From Kiritimatiellia bacterium (GTDB lineage: Bacteria; Verrucomicrobiota; Kiritimatiellia; RFP12; UBA1067), in NCBI GenBank assembly GCA_017403825.1, contig JAFRDO010000010.1:20401-84400 (forward strand): DNA of 64,000 bases. The letters run 5' to 3'. Below, piece after piece: positions 5,553 to 62,372 of this stretch. A program made the translations under genes and the position numbers. The notes below the pieces were generated by a model. It did not search any database. It had not been told where the DNA came from and saw only the letters and a list, made by a program, of their open reading frames with translations. How positions within the stretch are numbered: the first letter of the stretch is position 1; each line of letters begins with the position of its first letter.

Positions 5553-5587
5553 GCGCTCGCACTCAGGTAAAACAAGGGAGAATCATC

Positions 5588-6340
5588 ATGCTGAACGACT
5601 ACGGATACATCGACAAGGCGATAGCCAATATCAAGGAAGTCGCCGATAAGCAGGAGGCCAACATCAAGGCCGCAGCGACCCTGATGGCTGATGCGATCGC
5701 CGCCGACAAGCTCATCAACGTCTATGCGGGCGGCGGACACACCACGCTCGCGATGGGAGAGATGTTCTTCCGCGCCGGCGGCCTCGCCAACATCAACCCA
5801 ATGATGGAAACCGCGCTTTCAGTCTTCAACCAGGCGCTCAAGTACCTTGAGCTGGAACGTACCGTAAACTTCGGCGCATCAATAGTGAAGTACTACGGTC
5901 CGAAGGAAGGCGACGTCGTTCTCTTCTTCCACAACATCGGCATCAATCCGGCGACGATCGACGCCGCCGAGGAGTGCAAGAAGCGCGGCTGCAAGATCAT
6001 CGCCGTCGCCTCGTCGTACTGGCAGAACGAAATGCCGAAGGACCACTTCATCCGCCACCCGAACGGCAAGAACCTCTTCGACTATGCGGACGTCTGCATC
6101 GACGACTACAACCCAGTCGGCGATGCGGTGGTGAACGTTCCCGGCATGACGACGCCCATCGGCCCCGTCTCGAACGTAGTTGACTTCACCATCGCCCACC
6201 TTCTCGAGATCGAGACATGCCGCCAGTGCGTCGAGCGCGGCATCGTGCCACCGGTCTGGAACTCGGCCAACGCCCCCGGCGGCGACGAGAAGAACGCAGC
6301 CTACCTCGCGAAGTACAAGCCGCTCGTGAAGTGTCTGTAA
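5588..6340 (+). CDS. SIS-domain protein (UPF0309-like sugar-phosphate isomerase/binding fold)
   Basis: The ATG at 5588 has an AAGGGAG RBS; the longer track ORF 5177.. overlaps the EEP gene. The 'VYAGGGHTTLAMGE' and 'AVASS' patterns fit a SIS fold. It is paralogous to 39191..39892. Confidence 0.65.
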   Translation: MLNDYGYIDKAIANIKEVADKQEANIKAAATLMADAIAADKLINVYAGGGHTTLAMGEMFFRAGGLANINPMMETALSVFNQALKYLELERTVNFGASIVKYYGPKEGDVVLFFHNIGINPATIDAAEECKKRGCKIIAVASSYWQNEMPKDHFIRHPNGKNLFDYADVCIDDYNPVGDAVVNVPGMTTPIGPVSNVVDFTIAHLLEIETCRQCVERGIVPPVWNSANAPGGDEKNAAYLAKYKPLVKCL

Positions 6341-28318: not shown

Positions 28319-28395
28319 TATACTTCGGCATAGATAATAACGATTGGACTTGTAAATTGAGAAGTGACGAACGAGGATTAACTCTTCGCCTTGCG

Positions 28396-31300
28396 ATGAG
28401 TCTTGCCTTGGCGGCTGGCCTCGTCAGCGGAGCGGAGGAGCTGCGCTTGCCAGGTGAAGACGGAACGCATGTGGCGGCCTCGTGCGCACCCTTTCCAGAC
28501 GCCCTGAGCGCGTTCGTCTGGCGCAACTGGCCGGTGGTGTCCGTCGCGCGCATGGCAAAGGCCGTCGGAGCGGAACCGTCCGCGCTGGAGGCGATAGCCC
28601 GTGAGATGTCGCTTCCCGTACCCCAGCCGCCAGTTTCGCCCCTCTGGCGACGCAAAGGCTACATCACGGTCGTCAAGCGCAATTGGCATCTCCTTCCGTA
28701 CGACCAGCTGCTGACGATGACGGACATGACGCGCAAGGAACTCGCCTACTCCCTCGTCGAGGACGACTTCCTGTTCAGCAAGCTCGGCAACACAAAGCCG
28801 CTCTGCGCACCGGTCGTCTGCACAGAGGAGACGGCGGCGAAAGGCCGTGCGCAGCGCCGCTGGATCGCAAAAACGCTGAAGGAAGAGGGAGTCGTGCCGA
28901 TGGCGCCGGAGGAACCGCGCTTCCGTTTCATCGAAGAGCTGTCGGCCATGCCGTCGCACGACGCACACCCGCCCGCCGCGCAGTCCTCGTTCGACCTGCG
29001 GCTCATCTTCTCGTACTTTGCGGACTACGGCGATCCTCTCGGCGACGATGCGGTCGGTTCGTATCCGGATGGGCTTCTCGCGCGTCTCGCCGACAGCGGC
29101 GTGAACGCCGTCTGGCTGCATACCGTGCTGTCGACGCTCGCCAAGGATCCGCTCTACCCAGAGTTTGGCGACGGCTCGGAGAGGCGCATCGCCAACCTGC
29201 GCACGCTCGTCGCACGGGCGGCGCGCCACGGCATCAAGGTGTATCTCTACGTGAACGAGCCGCGCGCGCAGGACGACGCCTTTTTCGAGAAACCTGGCCG
29301 TCTGGAGATGCGTGGCGCCAGGCGACAGTCGGGCGGAAGCGGCTACGCACGCTGCACGTCGCATCCAGAAACGCGCCGCTGGCTGCGCGACTCGCTGCGG
29401 CAGGTATTTTCGCAGGTACCGGGCCTGGGCGGCGTATTCACGATCACGATGAGTGAGAACCTCACCAACTGCGCCTCGCGGTGGAAACGCGAGACATGCC
29501 CGCGCTGCAAGGATCGAAGGGTCGGAGACATCGTGGCCGAGGTGAACCGCACCATCTGGGAGGGCGTGAAGGCTGGCGATCCGAATGCAGAGGTCATCGC
29601 ATGGGACTGGGCGTGGCCGAAGGACGAGCGCACGTCCATCGTCGCACAGCTGCCGGCCGGGTCGTGCCGAATCATGTCCGTAAGCGAGATAGGCATGCCT
29701 TTCGTGCGCGGCGGCGTCACGTCCGAAATCAACGAGTACTCCCTTTCGACGCCGGGACCGAGCGACCGTGCGAAGGCTATCTGGGCGGCGGCGAGCGCAC
29801 ACGGGATGAAGACGGCAGCGAAGGTGCAGGCCGCGCTCACCTGGGAAATGAGCGCCGTGCCATATCTGCCGGTCATGGATATCGTCTCCGAACACGCGCA
29901 CAACCTGATCGATAACGGCGTTGACGGCGTGATGCTCTCCTGGTCGCTAGGCTCCGCGCCGACGCCAAACCTTGCCGTCTACACAGACTGCCGCCGAGGC
30001 GAGGAGCCCGGCGCAGTGCTCGACCGCCTCGCGGAACGGCTCTACGGACGTACAGGAGTCGCAGCGGCACGGGCCGCGTGGACCGCCTATTCCGACGGCT
30101 TCCGGGAATACCCGTTCAACATATCGTCCGTCTACTGCGGAAACCACACGCTCGGACCTGCCAACCACCTTTATGCGGAGCCGTCCGGCTGGACGGCCTC
30201 GATGGTGGGCTATCCTTTCGACGACCTGAAACGGTGGCGGGCGATTTTCCCCGAAGACGTTTGGCTAACGCAGATGGCGAAGGTACGCGATGGGTTCAAG
30301 AAGGGAAATGCGGCGTTCGAGGGCCTCGTCGCGTCACTGACCGGCGAGCGGCGGACGGCAGCAGAACGCGAGCTTGGACTCTTCCGCGCGATCGAAAACC
30401 ATTTCTGCGCCGTTGTCGACCAGGGGATGTTCGTGATGGCGCGCGAAAAAGGCAACAAGGCCGAGATGATCGCCTGCGCCCGCCGCGAACTTGAAACGGC
30501 ACGGAAGCATCTCGACCTAGTGCGCGCCGACAGCCGCATAGGATACGAATGCTCCAACCACTACTTCTACATTCCGCAAGACATCATCGAGAAGATGCTG
30601 AACTGCCGAGATGCCATTGCCAGGCTTACCGGAAACACAGGTACGGACACGCCAATCGCGGCGACGTGGTCTACGGACGACTTCGACCTTTCGCTCGCAA
30701 CCAACGGTTGCCTTGTATCCCTGAAGGAAAAGGAGACAGGGCGCGAACTCCTGCGCTGGAAGGGAAAGTTCGCCTCTGTCGTGGCCCAGGACGGCCGGGA
30801 GACGAAGGTCTCTTCTGTAAGCCGCGACGACGACGGACGGTTACACCTCTCCTTCGACGGCATGGACGGCGAGGCGGTGATGTCCGTCCGCGCCACGCAT
30901 TGGGGACTCGTCTTCACTGCGGAACGCCTGACCGTGCCGGACGCAAAAGAGTTCAAGTTCCTTATCGTCTATCCCGTCTGCCGGACGTACAACGGCTCGA
31001 TGATGAACGCCATGAGCGACGACGAATCGGCCGTCGTGCTGCGCACCTACGAGCTCGCGGCGGACATGCGCAACCGCGGCAACACAGTGCTGGAGGCCGT
31101 GGCGGAGGTCGCGGCGCATCCGCCGGCCCTGCCGTCGCGCGCCGCGCTAGTCGCCGCGCCACGTCGGCAAGTCCTCTTACGGATGAAGGAACTGACGCGC
31201 GATGCCGGAATCCTGTCGTCGCCCTGCGGCGGCGCATGGAGCCTGGAGGCTCCGGAGAACCGCGAGTCATACATCATCGGCAGCGTATCGCGGGAGTCCG

Positions 31301-33825
31301 CCGAGGACTGGATCGCTCTCGCCGAACGCGGCGGCTTCCGGACGGTCAGCTTCTACGACTGGTGGAAGACGCTCGGACACTACGACGCCGAGCCTAAGAA
31401 GTTCCCGCGCGGCGATGACGACATATGCGAGACGATTGCCATGCTCCATGCGGCCGGTCTCAAGGCCGGGATGCACACGCTGACTGCGGGTATCGACTTC
31501 CAAGACGCCTGGACGCGCCCCGTCTGCCATGCTGACCTGCTCGTAACCCACGCCTACACGCTCGCCAGGCCGTTCTCTGACGGCGACACGGAGATGGTCG
31601 TGAACGAGGCGCCGGGTCCGCGCCACCATCTCGTGACTTCATTCCTCTCGAACGGCAACATCCTGCGCGTCGGAGGGGAACTTTTCACTTACGCCGGGAT
31701 TCGCGGCGACGCCGCGCCGTATGCGTTCACGGGCGTGAAGCGCGGGGCCTATGGCACGACAAGGGGCAGCAACATTCCCGCCGGTACGCGCGTGGAGTAT
31801 CTCTTCCAGCACTTCTACTCGTTCTTCCCGGAGCCGTCGTCGCCGTTCATGGACACTATGGCCGCGCACCTCGCCGCGCGCTACCGGCAGCTCGGCTTCG
31901 ACTTCGTATACCACGATGGCGCGGAGCCGATGAGTCGCTACAACGTGGATCTGACGCGGCGGAAGTTCGCCGCCGCAATCGACCAGTCAGAACGTCCGCT
32001 GCAGGTGGAGGCAAGCGTCGGCGGCGCGCACAGCTGGTGGTTCCATTCGCGTCTCGGCGCCTGGGATCATCCGCGCTGGGCGCTCAAGAGCTTCCACGAC
32101 CGCCACCTCGCGTACTGCCGCGACCAGGTCGTCAAGGCAGAAATGCTTGCGCCTCAGGTCGGCTGGTGGTCGGTGATGAAAGCTGACGGTTCGGTGCGCG
32201 GAAGCTTCACGGACGAGTCGGAATACTTCGCCTCTCGGAACGCTGGCGAGGACTTCGCGATGTCGCTGACCGGGGTGAACGTGTCCAAGGGGCCGCTTGC
32301 GTTCTCGGTGGAGCGGCAGACCACGATAATCGGACGCTACGAACGTTTCCGCCTCGCCCGGGCGTTCACTGCCGAGGCGATGGAGCGGATGCGTCAGCCG
32401 GGCGCGGAGTTCAGGCTCGCACAGGGCGCGGACGGAATCTGGACGCTGACACCCGCCGCCGTTGCAACGCACCGGGCGACGGCAGACTTCCGCCTCTGGT
32501 CGTTTGATGCACCCCAAGCCGGAAAAAGCGCACTGCGAGTCGAGGCGCTGTACAAAGCGGGCGATGAGGGCGAAACGCTTATCGGACCGCTCGATGCGGC
32601 CAACCTCAAGACGTCTGCGGCGGAGAAGGTGTCGGTTGCGGTAACGACGGCGCACGACACGGAAATGGGCGACGTGCTCGTTTTACGGGCGGAGAACCAT
32701 GGTGATGCACGGCGCGGCGCATGGGGCGGCGCTGGGCTCGCCTACGGCCATCCCTACCGCAACGTTACTGGCGGACGGCAGGACATGGGGAAGGCGTTCG
32801 GTTTCTGGGTTAAGGGCGACGGTTCGGGTGCCGTGCTCGACTTCCGAATCACGTCGCCGCGCATACATAACGCCGGGCAGTCCGATCACTTCGTGACACT
32901 GGACTTCACAGGCTGGCGGCGTGTGAACGTGCTGTTGCGCGAACGCGACGCCGCGCGTCATGCTTCGCTCGCCTGGCCGGGGCAACGCACCGGGCACAGC
33001 ATACTGTACATGACCTACAGAGACCTTGTGACCCCGGAGCGTATAGAGAAGATCGAATTCTTCCTGAACGAGATTCCAATCAACAGCGTTGCAGAGGCCG
33101 TAATCGCGCCCGTCCGGGCTATGTCGACCGCGAAAGGACGCGTGGACGCGGCAACTGTCGTCGTGAACGGCATCCGCCATGCTGTGCCATTCGCCTTGGA
33201 GTCCGGGGAGTACGCGGAACTGGAAAAGGACGTGTGGACGCGCTATTCGGAGGCTGGAGAGCCGATGGAGGAATCTGCGGGTGCGGAACCGGTTGCACTC
33301 GCTGCCGGAGCAAACGAATGCCGGTTCGAAGCAGCGGACGCAGGGGCCCGGACGGAAGTGACCCTTGTCGCACTCGGACGCCCGTTCTCCGCGCTGAAGC
33401 CGCTTGACTCTTTGCCGGCTGCAGATCGAAAGACCCTCGACTACGAGGCACTCGATCCCATCGTGTATTGTCCGGCGAAAGGATTGGCGCGTCCGTTCGG
33501 GATCGCGGCGAGGCCCGGCGAAACGGCACGACTCGAGGTAGAAATCCTAGGACCGGTGAAGACACCGGCGCTGGAGTTCCGTGTGCGCGGCGCGGAGACG
33601 AAAGTATGCTCGTTCATAACGGATCTGGAAGCGAACGAAAAACTCATCTGCCGCAATGGCAAGGAGTGGAAGGTTGTAAAGGACTTCAAGACGGTACGCG
33701 TCGGCACGTTGGAAAAACCGATTCCAGAAGTATCGGGATTCGTCGGCGTGCGCGTGCGGAGTGCCAATCCGTCGTCGGCACACGCACGCGTAAACCTCGT
33801 GAAGCGCTATGACAGAGGCAATTGA
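28396..33825 (+). CDS. Giant secreted multidomain protein (~1810 aa): N-terminal TIM-barrel hydrolase-like domain ('YVNEP', CPRC) plus a central domain homologous to the giant protein 23246..28318
   Basis: The start was chosen at the ATG at 28396, giving MSLALAAGLVSG. A TTG at 28357 would give a more canonical signal peptide, and the annotated ORF begins at 28315. The frame is open for 5.4 kb. The shared block 'PY.FTGV.RG.YGTT ... F.YHDGAEP' matches the upstream giant protein. Confidence 0.7.
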   Translation: MSLALAAGLVSGAEELRLPGEDGTHVAASCAPFPDALSAFVWRNWPVVSVARMAKAVGAEPSALEAIAREMSLPVPQPPVSPLWRRKGYITVVKRNWHLLPYDQLLTMTDMTRKELAYSLVEDDFLFSKLGNTKPLCAPVVCTEETAAKGRAQRRWIAKTLKEEGVVPMAPEEPRFRFIEELSAMPSHDAHPPAAQSSFDLRLIFSYFADYGDPLGDDAVGSYPDGLLARLADSGVNAVWLHTVLSTLAKDPLYPEFGDGSERRIANLRTLVARAARHGIKVYLYVNEPRAQDDAFFEKPGRLEMRGARRQSGGSGYARCTSHPETRRWLRDSLRQVFSQVPGLGGVFTITMSENLTNCASRWKRETCPRCKDRRVGDIVAEVNRTIWEGVKAGDPNAEVIAWDWAWPKDERTSIVAQLPAGSCRIMSVSEIGMPFVRGGVTSEINEYSLSTPGPSDRAKAIWAAASAHGMKTAAKVQAALTWEMSAVPYLPVMDIVSEHAHNLIDNGVDGVMLSWSLGSAPTPNLAVYTDCRRGEEPGAVLDRLAERLYGRTGVAAARAAWTAYSDGFREYPFNISSVYCGNHTLGPANHLYAEPSGWTASMVGYPFDDLKRWRAIFPEDVWLTQMAKVRDGFKKGNAAFEGLVASLTGERRTAAERELGLFRAIENHFCAVVDQGMFVMAREKGNKAEMIACARRELETARKHLDLVRADSRIGYECSNHYFYIPQDIIEKMLNCRDAIARLTGNTGTDTPIAATWSTDDFDLSLATNGCLVSLKEKETGRELLRWKGKFASVVAQDGRETKVSSVSRDDDGRLHLSFDGMDGEAVMSVRATHWGLVFTAERLTVPDAKEFKFLIVYPVCRTYNGSMMNAMSDDESAVVLRTYELAADMRNRGNTVLEAVAEVAAHPPALPSRAALVAAPRRQVLLRMKELTRDAGILSSPCGGAWSLEAPENRESYIIGSVSRESAEDWIALAERGGFRTVSFYDWWKTLGHYDAEPKKFPRGDDDICETIAMLHAAGLKAGMHTLTAGIDFQDAWTRPVCHADLLVTHAYTLARPFSDGDTEMVVNEAPGPRHHLVTSFLSNGNILRVGGELFTYAGIRGDAAPYAFTGVKRGAYGTTRGSNIPAGTRVEYLFQHFYSFFPEPSSPFMDTMAAHLAARYRQLGFDFVYHDGAEPMSRYNVDLTRRKFAAAIDQSERPLQVEASVGGAHSWWFHSRLGAWDHPRWALKSFHDRHLAYCRDQVVKAEMLAPQVGWWSVMKADGSVRGSFTDESEYFASRNAGEDFAMSLTGVNVSKGPLAFSVERQTTIIGRYERFRLARAFTAEAMERMRQPGAEFRLAQGADGIWTLTPAAVATHRATADFRLWSFDAPQAGKSALRVEALYKAGDEGETLIGPLDAANLKTSAAEKVSVAVTTAHDTEMGDVLVLRAENHGDARRGAWGGAGLAYGHPYRNVTGGRQDMGKAFGFWVKGDGSGAVLDFRITSPRIHNAGQSDHFVTLDFTGWRRVNVLLRERDAARHASLAWPGQRTGHSILYMTYRDLVTPERIEKIEFFLNEIPINSVAEAVIAPVRAMSTAKGRVDAATVVVNGIRHAVPFALESGEYAELEKDVWTRYSEAGEPMEESAGAEPVALAAGANECRFEAADAGARTEVTLVALGRPFSALKPLDSLPAADRKTLDYEALDPIVYCPAKGLARPFGIAARPGETARLEVEILGPVKTPALEFRVRGAETKVCSFITDLEANEKLICRNGKEWKVVKDFKTVRVGTLEKPIPEVSGFVGVRVRSANPSSAHARVNLVKRYDRGN

Positions 33826-33869
33826 CTAGTTCTCCAGCTCAATATAACTCGCATAAAAGGAACATATCA

Positions 33870-36800
33870 ATGACAAAGTTGAAGATTTCAATAATTTGCT
33901 TGCTTTTTGCGATTTGGGGACAGTCCCCACAAGTTTGGGGACAGTCCCCGGCTGAGACCACGGCAGCGGTTTGGGGACAGTCCCCAACGGCGGTGGCGCA
34001 GGCGGAGTTTGAGAAGTATTACTTGGCGGTGACGGGCAAGGCCGCGCCGCAGGATGCCGTGACATTCGCCATTGACCCCGCCATGTCAAAGACCGGCAAG
34101 GACGCATATTCAATCGTGTCCTGCGGCAAAGGCGTGAAAATCACGGGCTCGAACGTGCGGAGCGTTCTCTATGGCGTGTACGACCTTCTGGAAAAGCGGG
34201 CTGGGTGCCATTGGTTCTGGGATGGCGACATCGTGCCGAAACGCGAGACTATCAACCTCTCTGGCCTGGACATCCATGAGGAGGCGCACTTTGAGTACCG
34301 GGGGCTCCGCTACTTCGCGCATCGGGGCCTTACGCGCTTTCAGGCCGAGCACTGGGGATTCGAGGACTGGAAGAAAGAAATCGACTGGATGCTCAAGCGG
34401 CGGCTGAACGTGTTCATGCTTCGCATCGGGCAAGATGACCTTTTCCAACGGACCTTTCCGGACATCTGTGGCTATCCCGATCCGTCCAAGGACCTTCCCG
34501 GTGCTGGGGAAGGCTACGACAACCGCACGCTATTCTGGAGCCTCCAATACCGAGGCGAACTGCGTCGGCGCATCCAAGCGTATGCGTTCGAGCGGGGGCT
34601 GATGGCGCCGGAAGACTTCGGCACGATGACGCACTGGTATTCGCGCACGCCTGAGGATTTCCTGGAGACGATGAATCCGCCGTTCCTGCCGCAGTCGACA
34701 AGCGGCTATGCGGAGCGGAACGGACTTGTCTGGGACGTTCGCGAAGATAAATGGGCGGACGAATACTGGAAGCTCACGAAGACTGCCGTGGATGCGTACG
34801 GGAAAGGCGCTCCGCAACGGCTTCTGCACACGATTGGCCTTGGCGAGCGCCGCTGCTACACTAACCGTCAGGACAACTTCAATCTCAAGGTCGAAGTCCT
34901 GGACAAGTTCCTAGCCCGCGCGCACCGCGACTATCCGGACGCCAAGGTTCTGCTCGCCGGCTGGGACTTCTACTTCACTTGGTTTCCCGAAGAAGTGCGT
35001 GCGCTCGTTGGACGGCTAGACCCTAAACGCGACATCATCTGGGACTACGAGGGCGATGCCACGCGCGACTGGCGCAAGGAGATGCAAGGACTCAACAACA
35101 ACTTCACCAAGTGGGGAGTCGTCGGGAAGTTCCCCTACACCTATTCCATCTTCCTTGCCTACGAATCGGCCCTTGACACGCGCGCGAACTATCCGCTAAT
35201 CGAGGAGCGGCAGAAGATAGTCCAGAACGACCCGGCTTGCGTCGGCTACGTCTTCTGGCCCGAGGCAAGCCATACCGATACGTTGTGCCTCAGGTACTTC
35301 ACTGCAAACGCATGGGCCAACGAGGCGGTGCCGCACGGAAAGGTTCTGGACGAATTCTGCGCAAGCCGCTACGGCGCCCTTGCCGGGCAGATGAAGGCAA
35401 TTTGGGAAAAGGCGTTGCCAGCATCGATGCTGCGCGACTGGGACGCGAACTACGGGAGGCTGATCACTGGAAGCGGCGAAAGCCTTCCGCCGTGCGACGA
35501 GAAGACACTGGCGGCGTGGAAGCAACCGGTCGAAGTCGCCAGGACAGTATTCGGGGAACTTGCCGACATTCCGTGGGCGGATGACTTTCTCCGGCGCGAC
35601 ACCATTGACATCGCCCGCATGGTGCTTGACCGCGTCATTACGTTGCGAACGTTCGAGTTGAGCCGGGACGTCGCCGCGTGGCGAGACGGTATGGACGCAC
35701 AGGCCAATTCCCTCCCTGAGAGGGCGAAGAGCCTCGCCGCGCTCTGCGACAAGATGGCCGATCTTTTGGAACTGCACACCGACTATTCGCTCTGGGAATC
35801 GTATCTTCGCCTTGATGCGGTGGAGAAAGTGCGCAATCCCGACTTCCCGAAGACGCTCCTCGACAACGCCTCCTGCAGCTACTGCCGCAGCCACCAGTAC
35901 GAACTGGCGCGGCACTGGTATGCGCCGCGCATGGAGAAGATGGCGTTGCGCCTAGCGGACGCCATTGCCTCCGGAGACCGCAACGTCAAGCTGTTTGACG
36001 ATCGCAACGCGGAGCGCCGCGCGCTCCTGGCCCGTCCGCTGGAGTCGCTCAAGCCAGTGCAGCCGCGCACGTGGGACCGCTATCGCGAGACCCTGCGCAC
36101 AATCGGCACGCAAGTTTCCGCTCCCGACGCGCTCCATGCGCGAACGACGCGCCTGCACGAGGGCATCCCATCCGTCGAGGTGTCGCCTAAGAACGGACGC
36201 ATCTGGGTGACATGGTACGGAAGCCCTACTGGCGGCGAAGACTCAAACAACTATGCCGTCCTGGCCACGAGCGCTGACGGCGGCGACACGTGGAAAGAGG
36301 TCGCCGTTGCGGATCCGGACGGCGACGGGCCTGTCCGCGCGTTCGATCCTGAGATATGGATTTCGCCTGACGGGAAACTCCGCTGGTTCTGGACGGAACG
36401 CGTTGCGCCGCTTGCGGCAGAAGCGAAGAACCGCAATGCCGGCTGCCTTGCCTCCCCCACGAACGATGTCCTGATGATGGCGGTCTTCAACAATGCCGAA
36501 GACGAACCCGATCCAAAACATCTGCCGGTCTCAAGGAAGATAGCGAGAGGCATAATGATGACCAAGCCGATCGTCTCACCGGACGGCGATTGGCTGTTCC
36601 CGATCGCCAACTGGTTCGAGGCTCCTTCTGGCAACGTCTGGGCCTCGTCCGATCGCGGCGGCACTTTGCGACTTGTCGGAGGCGTGACGCTGCCGAAAAA
36701 CGAACGCCTGTTTGACGAACACAACATCTATTTCACGAAAAGCGGAAAGCTTGCCTGCTGGTCGCGCACCAGGACAGGATGGATGCATGCATTTTCGACG

Positions 36801-37187
36801 GACGGCGGACGGACTTGGGGCGTGGCGGGATGTCCGAGCGGAACGAAACACACCTCTTCGCGGTTCGTCATCAAGCGGCTCTCGAGCGGCAATCTTCTCT
36901 TGATCAAGCATGGGAAAATGGACGAAGACATCGGCCGCGCCATGCTGACGGCCTACGTCTCGCTAGATGACGGCAAGACATGGAAAGGAGGGCTGCTGCT
37001 CGATGCGCGGAAAAGAACATCGTATCCAGATGCCGTCCAGACGCCTGATGGCGTCATACATGCCGTTCATGACTTCGACCGCATGGGCAAGCGCCACATT
37101 CTCTATTCCACTTTCACTGAGGCGGACATTCTCGCCGGACATGACGTTTCCGGCAAGTGCAGGCTTTCCAGGCCTGCCAACGAATAG
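33870..37187 (+). CDS. GH89 alpha-N-acetylglucosaminidase (NAGLU family) fused to a C-terminal BNR-repeat sialidase-like beta-propeller
   Basis: The block 'EHWGFEDWKKEIDWMLKRRLNVFMLRIGQDDLFQRTF' parallels the NAGLU '[35 protein letters not shown]' core, and the TIM barrel and C-terminal helical domain are collinear. Three BNR motifs (SADGGDTW, STDGGRTW, SLDDGKTW) lie in the last ~330 aa. The start is the ATG at 33870, which has an AAAGGA RBS. Confidence 0.75.
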   Translation: MTKLKISIICLLFAIWGQSPQVWGQSPAETTAAVWGQSPTAVAQAEFEKYYLAVTGKAAPQDAVTFAIDPAMSKTGKDAYSIVSCGKGVKITGSNVRSVLYGVYDLLEKRAGCHWFWDGDIVPKRETINLSGLDIHEEAHFEYRGLRYFAHRGLTRFQAEHWGFEDWKKEIDWMLKRRLNVFMLRIGQDDLFQRTFPDICGYPDPSKDLPGAGEGYDNRTLFWSLQYRGELRRRIQAYAFERGLMAPEDFGTMTHWYSRTPEDFLETMNPPFLPQSTSGYAERNGLVWDVREDKWADEYWKLTKTAVDAYGKGAPQRLLHTIGLGERRCYTNRQDNFNLKVEVLDKFLARAHRDYPDAKVLLAGWDFYFTWFPEEVRALVGRLDPKRDIIWDYEGDATRDWRKEMQGLNNNFTKWGVVGKFPYTYSIFLAYESALDTRANYPLIEERQKIVQNDPACVGYVFWPEASHTDTLCLRYFTANAWANEAVPHGKVLDEFCASRYGALAGQMKAIWEKALPASMLRDWDANYGRLITGSGESLPPCDEKTLAAWKQPVEVARTVFGELADIPWADDFLRRDTIDIARMVLDRVITLRTFELSRDVAAWRDGMDAQANSLPERAKSLAALCDKMADLLELHTDYSLWESYLRLDAVEKVRNPDFPKTLLDNASCSYCRSHQYELARHWYAPRMEKMALRLADAIASGDRNVKLFDDRNAERRALLARPLESLKPVQPRTWDRYRETLRTIGTQVSAPDALHARTTRLHEGIPSVEVSPKNGRIWVTWYGSPTGGEDSNNYAVLATSADGGDTWKEVAVADPDGDGPVRAFDPEIWISPDGKLRWFWTERVAPLAAEAKNRNAGCLASPTNDVLMMAVFNNAEDEPDPKHLPVSRKIARGIMMTKPIVSPDGDWLFPIANWFEAPSGNVWASSDRGGTLRLVGGVTLPKNERLFDEHNIYFTKSGKLACWSRTRTGWMHAFSTDGGRTWGVAGCPSGTKHTSSRFVIKRLSSGNLLLIKHGKMDEDIGRAMLTAYVSLDDGKTWKGGLLLDARKRTSYPDAVQTPDGVIHAVHDFDRMGKRHILYSTFTEADILAGHDVSGKCRLSRPANE
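33913..33997 (+). repeat. Three copies of the perfect 13-bp palindrome GGGGACAGTCCCC (flanked by TTT / TTTG) within the first 45 codons of the GH89 gene, encoding WGQSP x3
   Basis: This is directly visible at 33915-33927, 33936-33948 and 33983-33995. Each copy is self-complementary around a central A. Confidence 0.7.
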
Positions 37188-57084: not shown

Positions 57085-58074
57085 CTATTCGCCATCAGGC
57101 CCTTCGGCCTTGTCCGCTTTCTGATCGTCCTTGCCAGGATCGGCAGGGCGGAACTCCCAGTCAGGGTAGAGGGTCTTCAGCGTTTCGCGGTAGTAGTCGG
57201 CGTCAATCACGCGGTCATCCTTGAGCGCCTGGACATACAGGGACTCGAGCGACCCGACAATCGCCGCGCGGACGTCCGACGCCTCCTTTGCGAACGCCTC
57301 GTTCACCAGACGCTGCTCGCGCGCGAGCTTGCGGGACTCACGGGGAATCGAGCGGTCGGTTTCAGGATCATATACAACCTTCACCTGCTTCTTGACGTTG
57401 CCGTCCGCATCGATGATCGTGTCTTCCTGTCCGCCGGCCCAAGAGAGGTCAGCCACTGTCTTTTCCGGCTTAAGAGCGCGTTCGCGTTCCTCAAGGTCGG
57501 TCTTCCATTCGGCGAGGTCACGAGCCAGCGTCTCAAAGTCGATCTTATGGAGTTCCAGCAGCTTTGCCTCCGCTATAACCTTGTCGGCCTTAAGCTTTTC
57601 AGCTGCGAGCTTCGCCTCCTCGGCTTCCGCCTTGGAAGCCTCTGCCATGGCATTCTCGCGGGCGGTTTCCTGTTCCGCCTTGGCGGCCTCGGCCTTTGCC
57701 TTCGCTTCGTCCCGTGCCGCCTTGGCGGCCTCGGCCTTCGCGCGCTCCGCCTTTGCGTTCGCCTCGGCTGCGGCCCTCTTTTCGGCTGCGGCCTGGGCCT
57801 CAAGCTCCGCCGTGCCACGCGCGGTCTTCTCCGCCTCCAGCGCATCGGCCTTTGCCTTCGCGTTGGCTTCCGCTGCACGGCGCTTTTCGGTCTCGGCAGC
57901 GGCAGCCTTCTCCGCCGCGCGAGCTTTCGCGGAAGCAGCATCGGCGCGCGCCGCCTCCGCATCGGCCTGCGCACGCTCGGCCTTTGCGCGGTTCACATAC
58001 ACGACAGCCGCACCAACCGACGCCGCAATGACGGCGAGGCAGACTGCTATGATTGAAATTGTCTTGGCATTCAT
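57085..58074 (-). CDS. Membrane-anchored Ala/Glu/Lys-rich coiled-coil protein (TolA-like)
   Basis: The ATG at 58074 gives an N-terminal TM helix (MNAKTISIIAVCLAVIAASVGAAVV). This is followed by ~150 aa of AEAKAKAEA-type low-complexity helix and a C-terminal globular part. Confidence 0.5.
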   Translation of the reverse strand: MNAKTISIIAVCLAVIAASVGAAVVYVNRAKAERAQADAEAARADAASAKARAAEKAAAAETEKRRAAEANAKAKADALEAEKTARGTAELEAQAAAEKRAAAEANAKAERAKAEAAKAARDEAKAKAEAAKAEQETARENAMAEASKAEAEEAKLAAEKLKADKVIAEAKLLELHKIDFETLARDLAEWKTDLEERERALKPEKTVADLSWAGGQEDTIIDADGNVKKQVKVVYDPETDRSIPRESRKLAREQRLVNEAFAKEASDVRAAIVGSLESLYVQALKDDRVIDADYYRETLKTLYPDWEFRPADPGKDDQKADKAEGPDGE

Positions 58075-58102
58075 CGGAGAACTCCTTTGGACGAGGGAGC
58101 GT

Positions 58103-58263
58103 GATGACGTGAGAGACATGTGGGACGCGAGAGACGCGAGGCAGAGATGGCGTGAGTGACAAGGGGGACGCGAGAGACGCGAGGGCTCTCGCCTCTCATG
58201 TCTCTCACGTCCCTCATGTCATTAGCCATCTCGTCTCTCACGTCTCTCACGCCCCTCTCGTCA
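58103..58263. repeat. Composite repeat element: an inverted arm (58103-58183) plus a direct arm (58184-58263) built from degenerate 9-mers (CTCTCAYGT / ACGTGAGAG); the direct arm is identical to 59054-59133
   Basis: An 80-bp identity (GGCTCTCGCCTCTCATGTCTCTCACGTCCCTCATGTCATTAGCCATCTCGTCTCTCACGTCTCTCACGCCCCTCTCGTCA) is found at both loci. An exact 15-bp inverted repeat GACGTGAGAGACATG / CATGTCTCTCACGTC is present. Confidence 0.8.
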
Positions 58264-59121
58264 CCCGGCTCGAACGAACGGCCGCGTTCCGTTGCAATGC
58301 GGATAGTCGCAACAGCTCCAGAATGGTTTCCCGGCGTTTCGGCCTTTGCGCGCGACCATCTTTCGCATTGGTCCTCCACAATCGGGGCACTCCGGCGCGG
58401 CAACGGCGTCCTTCGCATCGCGCGCCGCCAGCCGAACCCGCGAAAGTCGCTCGGTGAAGCCGCCCTCTTCGGTGAAGGCGTCGCCTATCGCAAGCATCTG
58501 CTTGTGCAGAAGTCCACAGGCCCGGTCGATCACAATCAGCAAGGAGTTCGCCGCAACAATTGGGTCTTCGGCTTCAAGATGCGGCGCAAAGCGATTGCGC
58601 ATCTCCAAGATGTATTCGCCGTAGTCATGGCGGGACAAAGGCCCACCGTAGGGGTCAATGACGAGTGACGAGAGAGAGGAGTGACGCGGATCAGACGGCG
58701 ACCACGGTGCAACACCAGCGTCGACAAGGAACGCCTCGTAGTCGCCGGCAAGTTCTTCAAGCGAAGCCTTGGCCACATCATAGAGACGAAGCTCGGTCTC
58801 CTTCGAGGTCCCGGACCTGGAAGAGCCTTCAACGATATTCTGCCGCGCCGACCGCGCTGCGCCGACCATCTGCCCTGTAGTCTTGCCTAGCGCGTCGTTC
58901 TTGTAGTCGTAGTTGCGACGGCAGAAGAGCGTCGTGGCATGGTAAATGAGACACACATATCCGAAAGTCAGCGTCTTGCGATAGCCACCATACGCGCCAA
59001 TGATGCGCGACGATGTGGACGATTGGCGGACGGAGAAGGCGCGAGCGGCGTGATGGCTCTCGCCTCTCATGTCTCTCACGTCCCTCATGTCATTAGCCAT
59101 CTCGTCTCTCACGTCTCTCAC
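58261..59121 (-). CDS. Four-helix-bundle protein (23S rRNA intervening-sequence protein family, TIGR02436-like) fused to a C-terminal topoisomerase-type C4 zinc ribbon
   Basis: The core 'YKNDALGKTTGQMVGAARSARQNIVEGSSR...SLEEL' matches the 4HB family signature (QLRRAA.SI..NIAEG). The C-terminal 'CPDCGGPM...GKPFWSCCDYPHCNGT' matches the zf-C4_Topoisom pattern. The start lies inside the repeat, with a GTG at 59121 and ATGs at 59100, 59088 and 59070. Confidence 0.55.
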   Translation of the reverse strand: MRDVRDEMANDMRDVRDMRGESHHAARAFSVRQSSTSSRIIGAYGGYRKTLTFGYVCLIYHATTLFCRRNYDYKNDALGKTTGQMVGAARSARQNIVEGSSRSGTSKETELRLYDVAKASLEELAGDYEAFLVDAGVAPWSPSDPRHSSLSSLVIDPYGGPLSRHDYGEYILEMRNRFAPHLEAEDPIVAANSLLIVIDRACGLLHKQMLAIGDAFTEEGGFTERLSRVRLAARDAKDAVAAPECPDCGGPMRKMVARKGRNAGKPFWSCCDYPHCNGTRPFVRAG

Positions 59122-59133
59122 GCCCCTCTCGTC
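59054..59133. repeat. Second identical copy of the 80-bp repeat arm, abutting the secretin stop codon and containing the start codons of the 4HB gene
   Basis: This is a direct observation. It is identical to 58184-58263. Confidence 0.8.
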
Positions 59134-62100
59134 ATTCTATGGGCTTCGCAGCTTCTGGCTTCGCCTCAGCCGCAGGCTTTACCTCGGCAACAGGCTCTGG
59201 CTTGACCTCCGCCACAGGCTCGGGCTTCACTTCGGCGACCGGCTCCGGCTTCACTTCTGCAACAGGCTCAGACTTTGCCTCAGCATCCTGTTTCTCGGCC
59301 TTGGCCTTAGCCTTCTCCGCCTTCTCGGCATCGAGCTTTGTGCGCTCGTTGTCGCTGTGCGTAAGCTCCTCGTTCGCCTTGATCTCCTTTTCGGCCGCAG
59401 CAAGCTTCTTAGCCCTAACATCTTCGGCGAGCTTCTTGAGCTCCTCCTGACTTTCCTTGTCGAGCATCTTCTCCTCAAGCTCCTTCTGCTTCTCCTCCTC
59501 CAGCTCCTCCTTGTGCATCTTGAGCCAGAGGTCGCGCTCCTCCTTCGAGAGCGACTGCAGCTTCTTGGCGCGCTCCACCTTCTCCGTCTCGATGGCGATC
59601 TTAGTCTTGCGCTCCTCGTCCTGCTTCTTCCACTCGTCCTTAAGGCGCCTGAGCTGTTCACGCTTGCTGACAGGATCGGCCAGCTTCGACGCGGACCACC
59701 CATGGTCATCCCACGGCCTCGGGTCGGACAGCGTCTTCTTGCGGCGAATCGCCTCAGCCTGCGCCGCATCAGCCTCATCCAGCACATAAGGCGTTAAAAA
59801 GATTAGAAGTTCCTTTCTGGTCTCGGTTTTTGAGACGCTGCCAAAAAGCCAGCCTATCCATGGGAGATCCTTCAAATATGGAATGCCTTTCTCGGATTCG
59901 GCCTCAGCAGTCTCGGTCATTCCGGCGAAAACAACCGTCTGGCCATCTTCAAGCAGCACATCCGCCGTCATCTTACGCTCAACGGCAATATCCACATACA
60001 TCGTGTCATATGTCTCTCCAAATGGAACCAACATCGTCTGGCCATTATACTTTACTTGCGAATACTCCTCCTCGACTGTCAGCATGACCGTGCCATTCGG
60101 GTTGATCTTGGGAGTAATCTTCAGCTTGATGCCGATATCTTTTGCACTGTAGTTTGGCGTAGGCTTGCCGCTGTTGCCATAACTGCCCGACTGCGCGGAC
60201 CAACCGGTGATGAACTGCCTGTTCTCGGTCGCATCAATCGTCGCCTCCTTGTTGTCAACCGTCATGACAACAGGCGAGGCAATGTATTTTGAATGATCGT
60301 CCGTCTTCGACGCCTGAAGAATCGCCGAAAGACCCAATTTATCTGAATCAAAAACAAATGTAAGCGTTTTGCCGAACAAGTTTGACGTGACGCCCGATGC
60401 GATGTTGTAGGCCTGCGAACCACCGGACTCGCCACCGCCGAGCGCCGTCGCCATGCCGCCAGTATAGTAGTTCATTGCACCGGTACGGGCCACTTCCGCC
60501 GCCGTTCCGGCGAACGTGCTCACCGAATCAGTGACGGTCCTGACCCAAGTGACTTCTTTCCCATCTTCCGTAGTCGTAAACCTAGATGTCGACGAAGTCG
60601 CGGGATACGTACTTGGCACCAAGTCGGAAAGAACAGATGTTGACGAACTGTAGGCAGAGCCGTCCTTTGTCAGAGAGATTTCCCGCTGTTTGTGAAACAG
60701 CTCACGTCCCTGTTCATCCTTCGCGACGCCGTACACCTTCTCCCGCCCCTTCTGCACCCAGTCCAAGCCAGTCTCGATACCGTCGCCGAGACCGACCTCG
60801 ATGATGACCGTCTCGATAAGCACCTGAGAGAGCTTGATGTCCATCGACTCGATGATCTGCTCCAGCGTCGGCACGAGCTCCCTTTGCGTCATGACGACCA
60901 GGCCGTTGATGCGCTTGTCGTGGAGGACGGTGGTGTTCTCCTTGTTGAGTTCGCCGGCCTTGACGTCGCCGGTGCGCTGGTTGGCCGACTTCTTCGCGGC
61001 GGGCGTGCCGCCTGTAGGCGTGTTGCGCGTAAGGTTGCCGCCGCTGCCCTGCTTGGCGTTCTGGTTCTGGTTCGCCTTGCTGGACCCCTTCGACGACGGC
61101 GCGTTGCCGATGAGGTCGTTGATCATGTCGGAGACGTCCTCGGCAAGGGCGTACTTGAGGCGGTACACCTTTACTACGGTGTCGGGCGTGGTCTCCACGT
61201 CAAGCTGCTCGATGACCTTGTCGAAGAAGTCCATGTTAGATTTCATCGTCACGATGATGAGCTTGTTCGACCGCTCGTCGGCGAGGATCAGCACCTTGCC
61301 GCGTATCATGCCGCGGTCCGCGTCGGAGACGTTCATCACGAGCGACTGGTTGTTGGCCGCCGCTGCGGGCTGGTTGCCAGTCTGGCCGGGACGGCGCAGA
61401 GTGCTGCCAAGAAGCGGCGGACGCGGAGCGTCGTGCTGCTGCTGAGCCTGGTTCTGGTTCACGGTCTTGCCGTTCTTCTCCTGTTCCTTCTGCGATTCCT
61501 GCACGATCGCCTCGAGCGCCGTCTTGATGTCCTGCGCGGAGGCGTTCTTCACCTGGCGCACGAACACGTTCTCAAGTACGGGCGTCGCCACGTCGACCGC
61601 TCTCGCGATCTCGAGCATGCGGTTGATGTTCTGCTCGGTATCGGTGACGAGAATCGAGTTCGTGCGCTCGAACACGAGCAGGATGCCGTTGTTCGACCTC
61701 AGGCCCTCAAGCACCTTCTGCGCCTCGTCGGTGGCGATGTTCTTGAACGGAATCATCATCGACACGGTGCGGCTAGTCTCGCCGAGCTTCGCCTCCGGAT
61801 CCATGATGAGCGGAATGCCCTCCTTGCGCACGTCTTTGCGGGGCAGCGCGCGGACGAAGCTCTCGCCGTATGGCTCGATGTGGACTCCGTTCATCTCGAG
61901 GATCGTCTCTATGGCCTCGATGTACTCCTCGTCGGTGAGCTTCTGCCCGGGGCGCGTCTTCAGCGTGATCGTCGCGCTCGGGCAGGCGGGGTCCTTGAGG
62001 ACGGTCTTGCCGACGCGCTCTCCGTACGCCTGCAGCACGATGTCGACGGGCGCGGCGTCCCAGTTCAGCGCCGACGGATCGGCGTCCTCGGCCTCCGTCT

Positions 62101-62368
62101 CGGAGGAGTCGGGAGCGGTCGGTGCCGTGGAGCGCGACGAACGCGACGAGCGAGACTCGGACGACCTGTTGTTGCGGCCGTTGCGGTTGCGGTTCAAAAA
62201 CGACTGCGCCGAAGCCGATTCGGCGACGACGGCGGCAAGCGCAAGCGCCGCGACGATGACGAGAGTGACGCGTGTGACGCGAGAGACGAGAGAACCAATG
62301 CCCCCCGTGTCACTCGCGTCCCTCTTGCCGCCAAGTCTCTCGTCACATAAGTCTCTCGTGTCTCTCAT
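59132..62368 (-). CDS. Secretin of the type II secretion / type IV pilus family (GspD/PilQ-like) with a long C-terminal Lys/Glu-rich extension
   Basis: The canonical secretin C-domain is present ('VLLEDGQTVVFAGM...KGIPYLKDLPWIGWLFGSVSKTETRKELLIFLTPYVL'), preceded by N0/N-domain-like repeats. The ATG at 62368 has a GGAAGGGAAAGAGG RBS. The 35-aa N-region before the hydrophobic core is encoded by a repeat copy. Confidence 0.85.
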   Translation of the reverse strand: MRDTRDLCDERLGGKRDASDTGGIGSLVSRVTRVTLVIVAALALAAVVAESASAQSFLNRNRNGRNNRSSESRSSRSSRSTAPTAPDSSETEAEDADPSALNWDAAPVDIVLQAYGERVGKTVLKDPACPSATITLKTRPGQKLTDEEYIEAIETILEMNGVHIEPYGESFVRALPRKDVRKEGIPLIMDPEAKLGETSRTVSMMIPFKNIATDEAQKVLEGLRSNNGILLVFERTNSILVTDTEQNINRMLEIARAVDVATPVLENVFVRQVKNASAQDIKTALEAIVQESQKEQEKNGKTVNQNQAQQQHDAPRPPLLGSTLRRPGQTGNQPAAAANNQSLVMNVSDADRGMIRGKVLILADERSNKLIIVTMKSNMDFFDKVIEQLDVETTPDTVVKVYRLKYALAEDVSDMINDLIGNAPSSKGSSKANQNQNAKQGSGGNLTRNTPTGGTPAAKKSANQRTGDVKAGELNKENTTVLHDKRINGLVVMTQRELVPTLEQIIESMDIKLSQVLIETVIIEVGLGDGIETGLDWVQKGREKVYGVAKDEQGRELFHKQREISLTKDGSAYSSSTSVLSDLVPSTYPATSSTSRFTTTEDGKEVTWVRTVTDSVSTFAGTAAEVARTGAMNYYTGGMATALGGGESGGSQAYNIASGVTSNLFGKTLTFVFDSDKLGLSAILQASKTDDHSKYIASPVVMTVDNKEATIDATENRQFITGWSAQSGSYGNSGKPTPNYSAKDIGIKLKITPKINPNGTVMLTVEEEYSQVKYNGQTMLVPFGETYDTMYVDIAVERKMTADVLLEDGQTVVFAGMTETAEAESEKGIPYLKDLPWIGWLFGSVSKTETRKELLIFLTPYVLDEADAAQAEAIRRKKTLSDPRPWDDHGWSASKLADPVSKREQLRRLKDEWKKQDEERKTKIAIETEKVERAKKLQSLSKEERDLWLKMHKEELEEEKQKELEEKMLDKESQEELKKLAEDVRAKKLAAAEKEIKANEELTHSDNERTKLDAEKAEKAKAKAEKQDAEAKSEPVAEVKPEPVAEVKPEPVAEVKPEPVAEVKPAAEAKPEAAKPIE
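59177..59272 (-). repeat. Four tandem 24-bp repeats encoding (KPEPVAEV)x4 at the secretin C-terminus
   Basis: Units of the form GGCTTCACTTCGGCGACCGGCTCC are visible on the plus strand at 59177-59272. Confidence 0.6.
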
Positions 62369-62372
62369 GTCC
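62262..62372. repeat. Third, diverged copy of the 9-mer-based inverted-arm repeat, overlapping the 5' end of the secretin gene
   Basis: 'GACGAGAGTGACGCGTGTGACGCGAGAGACGAGAG' and 'GTCTCTCGTCACATAAGTCTCTCGTGTCTCTCATG' mirror the two arm orientations seen at 58103-58263. Confidence 0.6.

Follow-up and report, generated by a model that had tools for sequence, protein, structure and literature searches.

A 64,000-nt stretch of DNA from a Kiritimatiellia bacterium (the window, by which we mean the whole stretch analysed) carries an operon in which a gene for a four-helix-bundle (4HB) protein with a zinc ribbon lies between a secretin gene and a gene for a coiled-coil membrane protein, with the same 80 bp on either side of it. 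How did this gene come to sit between two copies of a repeat, and how is it expressed there? A preliminary description offered two readings of the repeat: a cassette inserted by recombination between repeat copies, or a palindrome of the MITE kind (miniature inverted-repeat transposable elements) or the repetitive extragenic palindromic (REP) kind that doubles as a translation-initiation module. Our comparative data support both in combination. The 4HB gene is probably a promoterless cassette bounded by translated hairpin repeats, with ribosomes passing through the repeats and recombination between them accounting for gain, loss and relocation. The cassette part of this reading is drawn from operons in which the gene is present, absent or moved and from six other gene contexts with flanking arm repeats. 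The translation part is drawn from a selected protein core that has no start codon outside the repeat and from about 50 homologue clusters whose extensions start in the hairpin; the mobile-palindrome part, from solo hairpins, one of them an insertion of 84 nt that keeps the frame of the secretin gene.

All genes within 55-64 kb of the window are on the minus strand. The gene order of the operon is a 355-aa open reading frame (ORF), a 180-aa ORF, the secretin gene, the 286-codon 4HB ORF, the coiled-coil gene and two further ORFs. The features needed for the argument are as follows.

59132..62368, minus strand: gene for a GspD-like secretin of 1078 aa, matching Pfam Secretin (1.5e-38) and Secretin_N and NCBIfam GspD (1.2e-98).
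62261..62344, minus strand: in-frame palindromic insertion of 84 nt (28 codons) in the signal-peptide n-region of the secretin; core of the third repeat copy.
59055..59134, minus strand: upstream 80-bp copy, a purine-rich 5' arm of (RYGAGAGAC)n units that holds the secretin stop and the Shine-Dalgarno (SD)-like run GAGAGGGG.
59029..59054, minus strand: degenerate, truncated remnant of a 3' arm, about 26 nt, recognised by alignment with the downstream hairpin and with the related loci L114 and L061.
58261..59121, minus strand: 4HB gene, 286 codons, comprising a 4HB domain of the S23p/23S rRNA intervening sequence (IVS) protein family, a 4helix_suffix domain and a topoisomerase-type Zn ribbon.
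58184..58263, minus strand: downstream 80-bp copy, the 5' arm of a complete hairpin, opening with the TGA of the 4HB gene.
58095..58183, minus strand: 3' arm of the complete hairpin, pyrimidine-rich, (GTCTCTCRY)n, identified by its fold and by inverted repeats I1-I4.
58071..58250, minus strand: hairpin ORF of 59 codons (VRDVRDEMANDMRD...SSKGVLR*), starting at GTG 58250 and crossing both hairpin arms.
57085..58074, minus strand: coiled-coil membrane protein gene, 329 aa, with ATG at 58074 and the SD sequence AAAGGAG at 58082-58088.

The direct repeat is exact over 80 bp (58184-58263 = 59055-59134) and does not extend on either side. The preliminary description was right about the identity but had placed the second copy 1 nt off, at 59054-59133. 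The two copies stay 96% similar over 95 nt; no third exact copy is found within the window. On the minus strand, each copy opens exactly at the TGA of the preceding gene (secretin, 59134-59132; 4HB, 58263-58261), the tie to upstream stop codons that had been claimed. The coding strand after this TGA reads TGACGAGAGGGGC GTGAGAGAC GTGAGAGAC GAGATGGCT AATGAC ATGAGGGAC GTGAGAGAC ATGAGAGGC GAGAGCC. The downstream copy directly abuts the complementary arm 58183-58095, giving a 170-nt hairpin with long, near-perfect helices. On the minus strand, 58085-58270 gives a single hairpin at -115.3 kcal/mol (z = -10.7); 0 of 200 shuffles folded as well. The reverse-orientation arm reported earlier was thus recovered, together with its exact 15-bp inverted repeat (GACGTGAGAGACATG, 58106-58120 versus 58197-58211). 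The upstream copy is separated from the 4HB core by the 3'-arm remnant, whose sequence is translated within the predicted N-terminal extension of the 4HB protein. Two identical 5' arms (59134-59055 and 58263-58184) compete for the one 3' arm at 58183-58095, and the 4HB ORF is enclosed by complementary arms, the first of these 5' arms and that 3' arm. The whole element is an imperfect palindrome and hence has terminal inverted repeats, as a MITE does.

The arms are tandem arrays of a 9-mer, as had been proposed. The 9-mer GTGAGAGAC occurs 7 times in the window versus 0.58 expected, and a degenerate two-unit pattern 12 times versus 0.14 expected; every match falls at 58.1-58.26, 59.06-59.12 or 62.26-62.37 kb. 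A sliding-window minimum free energy scan was governed by GC content, and hairpins were located by an inverted-repeat search instead, which found no long hairpin elsewhere in the whole window. Within 64 kb, the element is restricted to the secretin operon, contrary to what a generic, abundant REP-like repeat would show. An Rfam scan of 57.5-62.8 kb found no family match and no rRNA; only microRNA-precursor-like matches far below threshold appeared, as expected of any long hairpin.

Relatives were collected by a pattern scan of species-representative genomes, whose matches were mostly unrelated simple repeats, by tblastn for orthologous operons, and by look-ups of close 4HB homologues. Related contigs and loci are labelled L006, L061, L114 and so on, and 4HB homologues P0062 and P0048. 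The orthologous operons lie in Kiritimatiellae-type metagenome-assembled genomes (MAGs) and occur in three states. In L066, L057, L106, L113, L114, L115 and L116, the order is secretin, hairpin, 4HB, hairpin, coiled-coil gene, with the 4HB gene present. In L061 and L006, the 4HB gene is absent and one hairpin is left between the secretin and coiled-coil genes. L061 is 83% identical to the window in the secretin and 88% in the coiled-coil protein; L006 is the locus in the set nearest to L116 (90% identity in the upstream 180-aa ORF product). In L052, the gene has moved, the order being secretin, hairpin, coiled-coil gene, hairpin, 4HB, hairpin, ychF. L052 and L115 share 79% identity in the secretin, 83% in the coiled-coil protein and 96% in YchF. 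In L052, each of the two hairpins around the 4HB gene has the other as its best match (local alignment score 99), and the hairpin after the secretin gene is orthologous to that of L115. The junction between the coiled-coil gene and ychF in L115 is a 62-nt gap by gene coordinates, too short for a hairpin of about 190 nt. The comparison among related strains that the preliminary description had proposed as a check thus yielded present, absent and moved alleles, all with hairpins. These comparisons indicate that the 4HB gene has probably been gained, lost or moved together with hairpin copies, a single hairpin marking the empty site. Further filled and empty alleles were sought in metagenomes by way of the coiled-coil protein's C-terminal domain, which yielded a single relevant short contig.

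The layout in the window is not confined to one assembly. Three independent metagenome contigs carry an identical secretin and the same gene order. L114, which comes from another sample, has a 94-97% identical 4HB protein and the same architecture with its own sequence variants. The two 5' arms of L114 are identical to each other save one extra 9-mer. Four 5'-arm sites separate the window from L114, yet at each of them both copies within a genome agree. Over the 4HB core, the two loci differ at a proportion of synonymous sites (pS) of 0.19, with a nonsynonymous to synonymous ratio (pN/pS) of 0.054. Because the arm variants are common to both copies within a genome while the adjacent pS is 0.19, the flanking copies are homogenised within genomes, via gene conversion or repeated recombination. 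The 4HB protein is under strong purifying selection.

The 4HB core begins at about 59004 (RIIGAYGGYRK). All in-frame starts of its ORF lie in the upstream copy (GTG 59121 and 59112; ATG 59100, 59088 and 59070), and the gene call on an independent contig uses the ATG equivalent to 59070, giving 269 aa. From the repeat to mid-helix 2, the window ORF has no in-frame ATG, GTG or TTG. Since the protein is under selection and has no other start, its translation must begin in the 5' arm. The predicted N-terminus encoded by the repeat would read (M)RDVRDEMANDMRD... joined to ...SSRIIGAYGGYRK. We classified the N-termini of the 120 closest homologue clusters. Fifty-two begin MT(E/K)IIGAYGGYRK, and 54 carry an N-terminal extension of 18-161 residues that corresponds to the translated 5' arm (MRDxRD...) followed by the translated 3' arm (PLVSRVPH...); the remaining 14, which lack the IIGAYGGY core motif, were left unclassified. 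The canonical Met is missing in all but 3 of the 54 extended clusters. Despite wide differences among the hairpins in both length and sequence, the frame remains open, and nine-nt units keep the frame when their number changes. The RD-repeat region was also considered as a functional protein domain and rejected; palindromy is conserved at the nucleotide level, and the peptides vary freely. In L113, each side of the 4HB gene holds a tandem amplification, about five-fold, of the hairpin unit (5383-5860 and 6640-7095). The upstream units there are all in frame, giving a 160-aa N-terminal extension in P0048, and the ATG of the ORF overlaps the secretin stop.

Each copy had been thought to start the next gene. 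The upstream copy does start the 4HB ORF, but the downstream copy starts the 59-codon hairpin ORF and not the coiled-coil gene. The real start of the latter is ATG 58074 behind AAAGGAG; its homologues begin MN(A/T)K, and an independent contig's gene call gives the same 329 aa. GTG 58250 of the hairpin ORF is 10 nt past the 4HB stop, and its final TGA overlaps ATG 58074 (ATGA). Both junctions have one layout, that expected of translationally coupled cistrons, in which re-initiation is predicted: secretin TGA, 10 nt (GAGAGGGG) and GTG 59121; 4HB TGA, 10 nt and GTG 58250. At the hairpins ahead of other genes, about 19 junctions in all, the ORF begins in the first 5'-arm units. It ends in an ATGA overlap in the window, L061, L066, L115, both L100 junctions, L112 and the second L109 junction, and ends up to about 25 nt before the next start in L052 (both junctions), L006, L116 and L021. 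It is fused in frame at both L110 junctions and in the secretin-linked 4HB genes. Across 56-64 kb, no promoter-like site was found, and terminator-like matches numbered 7, where shuffles averaged 7.4, and none of them fell at a hairpin. The operon is therefore predicted to form one transcription unit, with a promoterless 4HB cassette in it.

Six further contexts of the 4HB gene were fetched by protein identity alone and are therefore unbiased as to hairpins. The gene lies between fliR and flhB (beside a barnase-barstar pair), in a glycosyltransferase operon, between hsdM/DUF1016 and hsdS in a type I restriction-modification (R-M) locus, between an AAA22 gene and dus, ahead of a DUF6259 gene, and behind a pseudouridine synthase gene. 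In every context, it is co-oriented with its neighbours and has GAGAC/GTCTC-type arms on both sides, which are direct repeats of each other. The units differ by locus, being 7 nt (GAGACGC-type) in the other contexts and 9 nt in the secretin-linked loci. In L100, L109, L110 and L112, where full hairpins on both flanks were scored, each flank has the other as its best match, by a narrow margin in L110. For L121 and L122, the repetition downstream of the 4HB gene is limited to an arm or a fragment. Most loci have the layout hairpin-gene-hairpin, the window has 5' arm-gene-hairpin, and L121 has hairpin-gene-3' arm. A purine arm upstream and a pyrimidine arm downstream of the 4HB ORF are found at every locus.

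Several of these contigs hold related structures. In L100 (8810-9380; also in L102, absent from L101), a small PF05635 gene of 127 aa follows flhB and lies between the arms of an exact 27-nt inverted repeat of GGAAGTTT-type units, with ggaagtttggcgcaagcgccttggaag on the upstream side and the reverse complement on the downstream side; this is an IVS-like stem around an ORF, in an mRNA context. The barnase-barstar pair beside the fliR/flhB cassette is at 6906-7693 in L100-L105, and GmrSD, NERD and Fic genes are nearby. Directly downstream of the 4HB cassette of L109, a 50-nt palindrome of GAGACGC-type units (3751-3800) lies in frame in a GT4 glycosyltransferase gene and encodes the peptide DVRRETLDASHVSRLTS. 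In the type I R-M locus L110, a perfect 26-nt inverted repeat (GAATTCGCCCAACGGCATTGGGCGAA and its reverse complement, 16-nt loop; 3369-3436) lies within a DUF1016/YhcG-type gene.

The diverged third copy reported earlier is real. It spans 62256-62372, with a weaker fold (-57 kcal/mol, z = -2.3). Complementarity of 77-78% between its 3' arm and the 5' arms at 58.2 and 59.1 kb marks it as a member of the family and not a local snap-back. The 84 nt at its core are a clean gap against the 83%-identical secretin orthologue of L061, which begins MRDMRGLYVIVAV... The junctions read CTTATGT|...|GTCAT in the filled window and CTTATAT|GTCAT in the empty L061. There is no clear target-site duplication, and no target-site rule could be derived from this insertion. 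Insertion polymorphism of the MITE type is seen both here and in the hairpin upstream of the secretin gene, which is present or absent among relatives. Solo hairpins without a 4HB gene occur in L061, L006 and L021 and in 5' leaders of the MAG CAVCXQ01. The copy number is three sites in 64 kb, all in one operon, and at least five loci in one MAG.

The leaders of CAVCXQ01 lie at four loci with one layout (L015 7830-8000, L062 1-200, L073 2800-3040 and L091 5750-5990): a consensus TTGACA-17-TATAAT promoter, then (ggtggagaag)n, then a GAGAGAC-type hairpin. This MAG is labelled Muribaculaceae, and its contig L021 carries a Kiritimatiellae-like secretin operon, which makes the bin label or the binning doubtful. 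In Saprospiraceae MAGs (L025 4240-4400, L041 2700-2900, L076 1880-1960 and others), one-armed arrays of GTGAGAGAC or GTCTCTCAC lie directly upstream of start codons. These arrays have no inverted partner and appear to be a phenomenon separate from the hairpins. A jackhmmer search of all fetched loci with the small L100 4HB protein, aimed at 4HB genes beside Bacteroidota GAGAGAC arrays, gave no match.

The gene identities first proposed for the operon were borne out. Secretin and Secretin_N domains and the GspD-like assignment were recovered for the secretin, and the 4HB gene, the only one of its kind in the window, matched TIGR04258 '4helix_suffix' above cutoff (50.8 bits, cutoff 40). Its matches to PF05635 (22.9 versus 33.8) and TIGR02436 (22.6 versus 24) fell just below cutoff, as did that to PF01396, the topoisomerase-type Zn ribbon. 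A protein search found 3255 homologues, many of them with a precomputed PF05635 match; those named by source are 'four helix bundle suffix domain-containing protein' in Kiritimatiellae/Kiritimatiellia MAGs. The AlphaFold model of P0062, which is 72% identical and has the canonical N-terminus, is all-helical with a C-terminal three-stranded Zn ribbon (predicted local distance difference test score, pLDDT, 86). Its best folds in the PDB are 2gsc and 2rld, both of the S23p family (probability 0.99-1.0). A PDB sequence search gave a marginal match to 2gsc and nothing else. The gene thus falls in the four-helix-bundle S23p/PF05635/TIGR02436 family by which IVS ORFs are defined. PADLOC gave no defence-system match.

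The explanation that we favour for the cassette runs as follows. The 4HB/Zn-ribbon gene would ride inside host operons, bounded by hairpin copies with short-unit arms. On the mRNA, the 5' arm would supply a TGA at or just past the end of the upstream cistron, an SD-like purine run and an in-frame ATG or GTG. With neither arm holding a stop in that frame, ribosomes would read across the hairpin, and the frame would either run on into the next gene (4HB, or the secretin at the third copy) or stop on or near the next start (ATGA at the coiled-coil gene). Such read-through arms would make the insertion non-polar and allow the 4HB protein to be made without a start codon of its own. The flanking copies would serve as direct repeats and, being palindromic, as inverted repeats too; recombination between them would homogenise them, delete the cassette leaving one hairpin, and permit re-insertion at another site. 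Solo hairpins would insert independently, even in frame inside genes. What this explanation has to account for is observed: the architecture, its recurrence, the presence, absence and relocation of the gene, the concerted evolution of the copies, purifying selection, and the lack of any other start codon. Recombination is the putative route of movement.

Several points weigh against this explanation. NTGA makes up 61% of the other gene starts in these contigs, and for this reason we downgraded the ATGA overlaps as evidence of coupling. The 3' arms cannot hold stops in any frame. Because of both points, we infer the relay of ribosomes between cistrons, a step predicted from sequence alone, rather than count it as observed. 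A hairpin as stable as -115 kcal/mol normally impedes initiation inside it. The upstream hairpin of L121 has the opposite arm order. The absence of the 4HB gene from L061 and L006 could be loss and not an empty target site, which bears on the polarity of the change. No recombinase or transposase was found near any copy, the window having been scanned in part. The mismatches within the hairpins also speak against it. In 28 hairpins of the window and related loci, aligned with an unbiased purine/pyrimidine-collapsed fold, transition-type mismatches on the sense strand are A.C in 301 cases versus G.U in 206 (p = 3e-5), the opposite of the G.U enrichment on the mRNA strand expected of an RNA element. 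By standard folding, the antisense strand has the lower energy in 20 of 26 hairpins. This bias argues against selection for a stronger mRNA helix. Either the mRNA helix is kept weak enough for translation, or the relevant fold is that of the template-strand DNA.

The strand bias also bears on two rival explanations. One is an IVS-like RNA element, in which the arms pair as double-stranded RNA for cleavage by RNase III, so that the 4HB segment would be excised from the operon transcript or set apart from it, as 23S rRNA IVSs are excised, with translation of the arms incidental. The gene does belong to the S23p family found inside rRNA IVS stems, a purine arm precedes and a pyrimidine arm follows the ORF at every locus, the hairpin has long near-perfect helices, and the small L100 gene lies within its exact 27-nt inverted repeat. 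Moreover, variable tandem heptamers (GACAGAT) immediately precede the S23p ORF in the Coxiella IVS, at the RNase III site (PMC4990558). However, the excess of A.C over G.U on the sense strand is contrary to selection on an RNA helix, an open frame through variable hairpins in about 50 clusters would be needless for an untranslated processing site, and cleavage of the 5' arm would strip the only start codons from a gene under purifying selection. We consider such an element unlikely, although it keeps some plausibility. The other rival reads the hairpins as single-stranded DNA recombination sites, folded on the bottom strand in the manner of attC or of IS200/IS605 and REPIN elements, with coding compatibility a secondary adaptation; the recogniser would be a recombinase or transposase encoded elsewhere, or the 4HB/Zn-ribbon protein itself. 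Consistent with this are the better folding of the template strand in those 20 of 26 hairpins, an architecture in which a promoterless, co-oriented gene precedes an imperfect palindrome, the shift from one junction to another (L052 versus L115), the discrete solo insertions, and a Zn ribbon of the topoisomerase I type, a class that binds single-stranded DNA. Against these stand the lack of an integrase or HUH transposase in the flanks examined, the lack of GTTRRRY/RYYYAAC core sites in the hairpin, arms that are variable tandem arrays and not a conserved recognition hairpin, and the failure of the 84-nt insertion to yield a target-site rule. This seems to us rather improbable.

Two simpler explanations fare worse. 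An ordinary local duplication, or a generic REP-like repeat that lies beside the 4HB gene by coincidence, would fit the similar solo hairpins without a 4HB gene (L061, L006, L021 and the CAVCXQ01 leaders) and the simple GAGAGAC tandem arrays in many unrelated genomes. It is largely refuted, and very improbable, in view of flanking repeats that recur around 4HB homologues in eight gene contexts chosen without regard to repeats, copies within a locus that are mutual best matches and evolve in concert, and the restriction of the element to one operon in 64 kb. An assembly artefact, in which a mis-join or collapsed repeat made the duplicate, was also considered, the sequence being probably a metagenome assembly and 80-bp repeats being able to mislead assemblers. 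We rejected it, with hardly any doubt, on the independent contigs: three of them carry the identical secretin with the same downstream genes, and L114 has the same layout with variants of its own.

Among known systems, the closest relatives of the cassette are the 23S rRNA IVSs with an S23p ORF, which are the nearest, and in-frame palindromic MITEs. Like the IVSs of Coxiella burnetii and Leptospira (PMC4990558), the cassette has an ORF of the same protein superfamily between complementary arms of a long stem, variable numbers of short purine-rich tandem repeats immediately ahead of the ORF, a lack of its own promoter, a need for host transcription, and a patchy distribution that suggests mobility. 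Unlike them, it lies between protein genes of an operon (secretin/coiled-coil) and not in rRNA helix 25 or 45, its arms are duplicated into complete hairpins or arm copies that form flanking direct repeats, and these arms are predicted to be translated and to supply stop and start codons. Its larger protein, which is under purifying selection, adds a helical suffix domain and a Zn ribbon, whereas the Coxiella S23p ORF has been reported as decaying and probably untranslated (PMC4990558). A mobile origin of the 23S rRNA IVSs has long been suspected and is unproven (PMC4990558).

The hairpins also resemble other palindromic repeats. Rickettsia palindromic elements (RPEs) are in-frame palindromic mobile repeats. 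RU/ERIC-type MITEs of enterobacteria occur inside genes (PMC2759123). Like both, the hairpins are palindromes of about 50-170 nt that insert in transcribed regions, even in frame in ORFs, where they add peptide. They differ in that their arms are degenerate tandem 7-9-nt units and not unique sequence, their copy number is apparently low, they appear dissimilar in sequence to both families, and they are tied to one gene family, flanking it in pairs; the paired form carries a gene, as a MITE does not. Integron cassettes with attC share the promoterless co-oriented gene followed by an imperfect palindrome, boundaries that are direct repeats, and one strand that folds better. The 4HB cassettes, by contrast, are single and scattered in ordinary operons with no cassette array, and their palindromes are predicted to be translated. 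An attC identity was rejected, as the hairpin lacks any GTT or AAC triplet and so has no R'' (RYYYAAC) or R' (GTTRRRY) core; no integrase domain was found among the 27 window ORFs scanned (a partial scan) or in the gene tables of the 4HB loci. Like REP/REPIN sequences (associated with the transposase RAYT) and the Correia elements of Neisseria, the hairpins would be co-transcribed with their neighbours and could affect mRNA processing or expression. Unlike those, which have tens to hundreds of dispersed copies and no cargo, they occupy three sites per 64 kb in one operon, plus the pairs that flank 4HB genes; no RAYT gene was present among the window ORFs scanned. In the literature searched, we found no description of hairpin-flanked 4HB cassettes in operons, which is absence of evidence only. 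The cassette looks like an undescribed operon-riding mobile element.

Some further features of the window are recorded here. At 59151-59284, five tandem 24-nt repeats encode (PEPVAEVK)n in the secretin's C-terminal tail, which follows a long charged coiled-coil extension. Three consecutive giant ORFs of 1690, 1836 and 1121 aa occupy 23246-37187; Pfam gave nothing for the first of them, just a weak CBM_11 match for the second, and NAGLU and BNR domains for the third. The remainder of the scanned window holds housekeeping genes of nitrogen and nucleotide metabolism (GOGAT, GS type III, CTP synthase and GMP synthase).

The S23p/four-helix-bundle family is very large and is scattered across operons, restriction-modification loci and rRNA genes. 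We know of no function or mobility mechanism assigned to it since the rRNA IVSs were described in the 1990s. A wider conjecture is that S23p/4HB genes with short-unit hairpin arms form one class of mobile cassette that includes the classical 23S rRNA IVSs, with hairpins that are recombination sites as template-strand DNA and translated, non-polar adaptors on the mRNA, and with a 4HB/Zn-ribbon protein that recognises the hairpins and drives movement; we put this forward as a long shot. The filled, empty and relocated alleles, with their defined boundaries, make the movement of S23p/4HB genes directly testable. The design itself is unusual, a long palindrome that ribosomes would cross and that supplies the stop and start signals between cistrons. 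If our reading is correct, translated hairpins would account for many 'RD-repeat' N-termini and odd signal peptides, which calls for caution in annotation, and the cassette would be a novel means by which a selfish or accessory gene inhabits an essential operon while leaving it intact.

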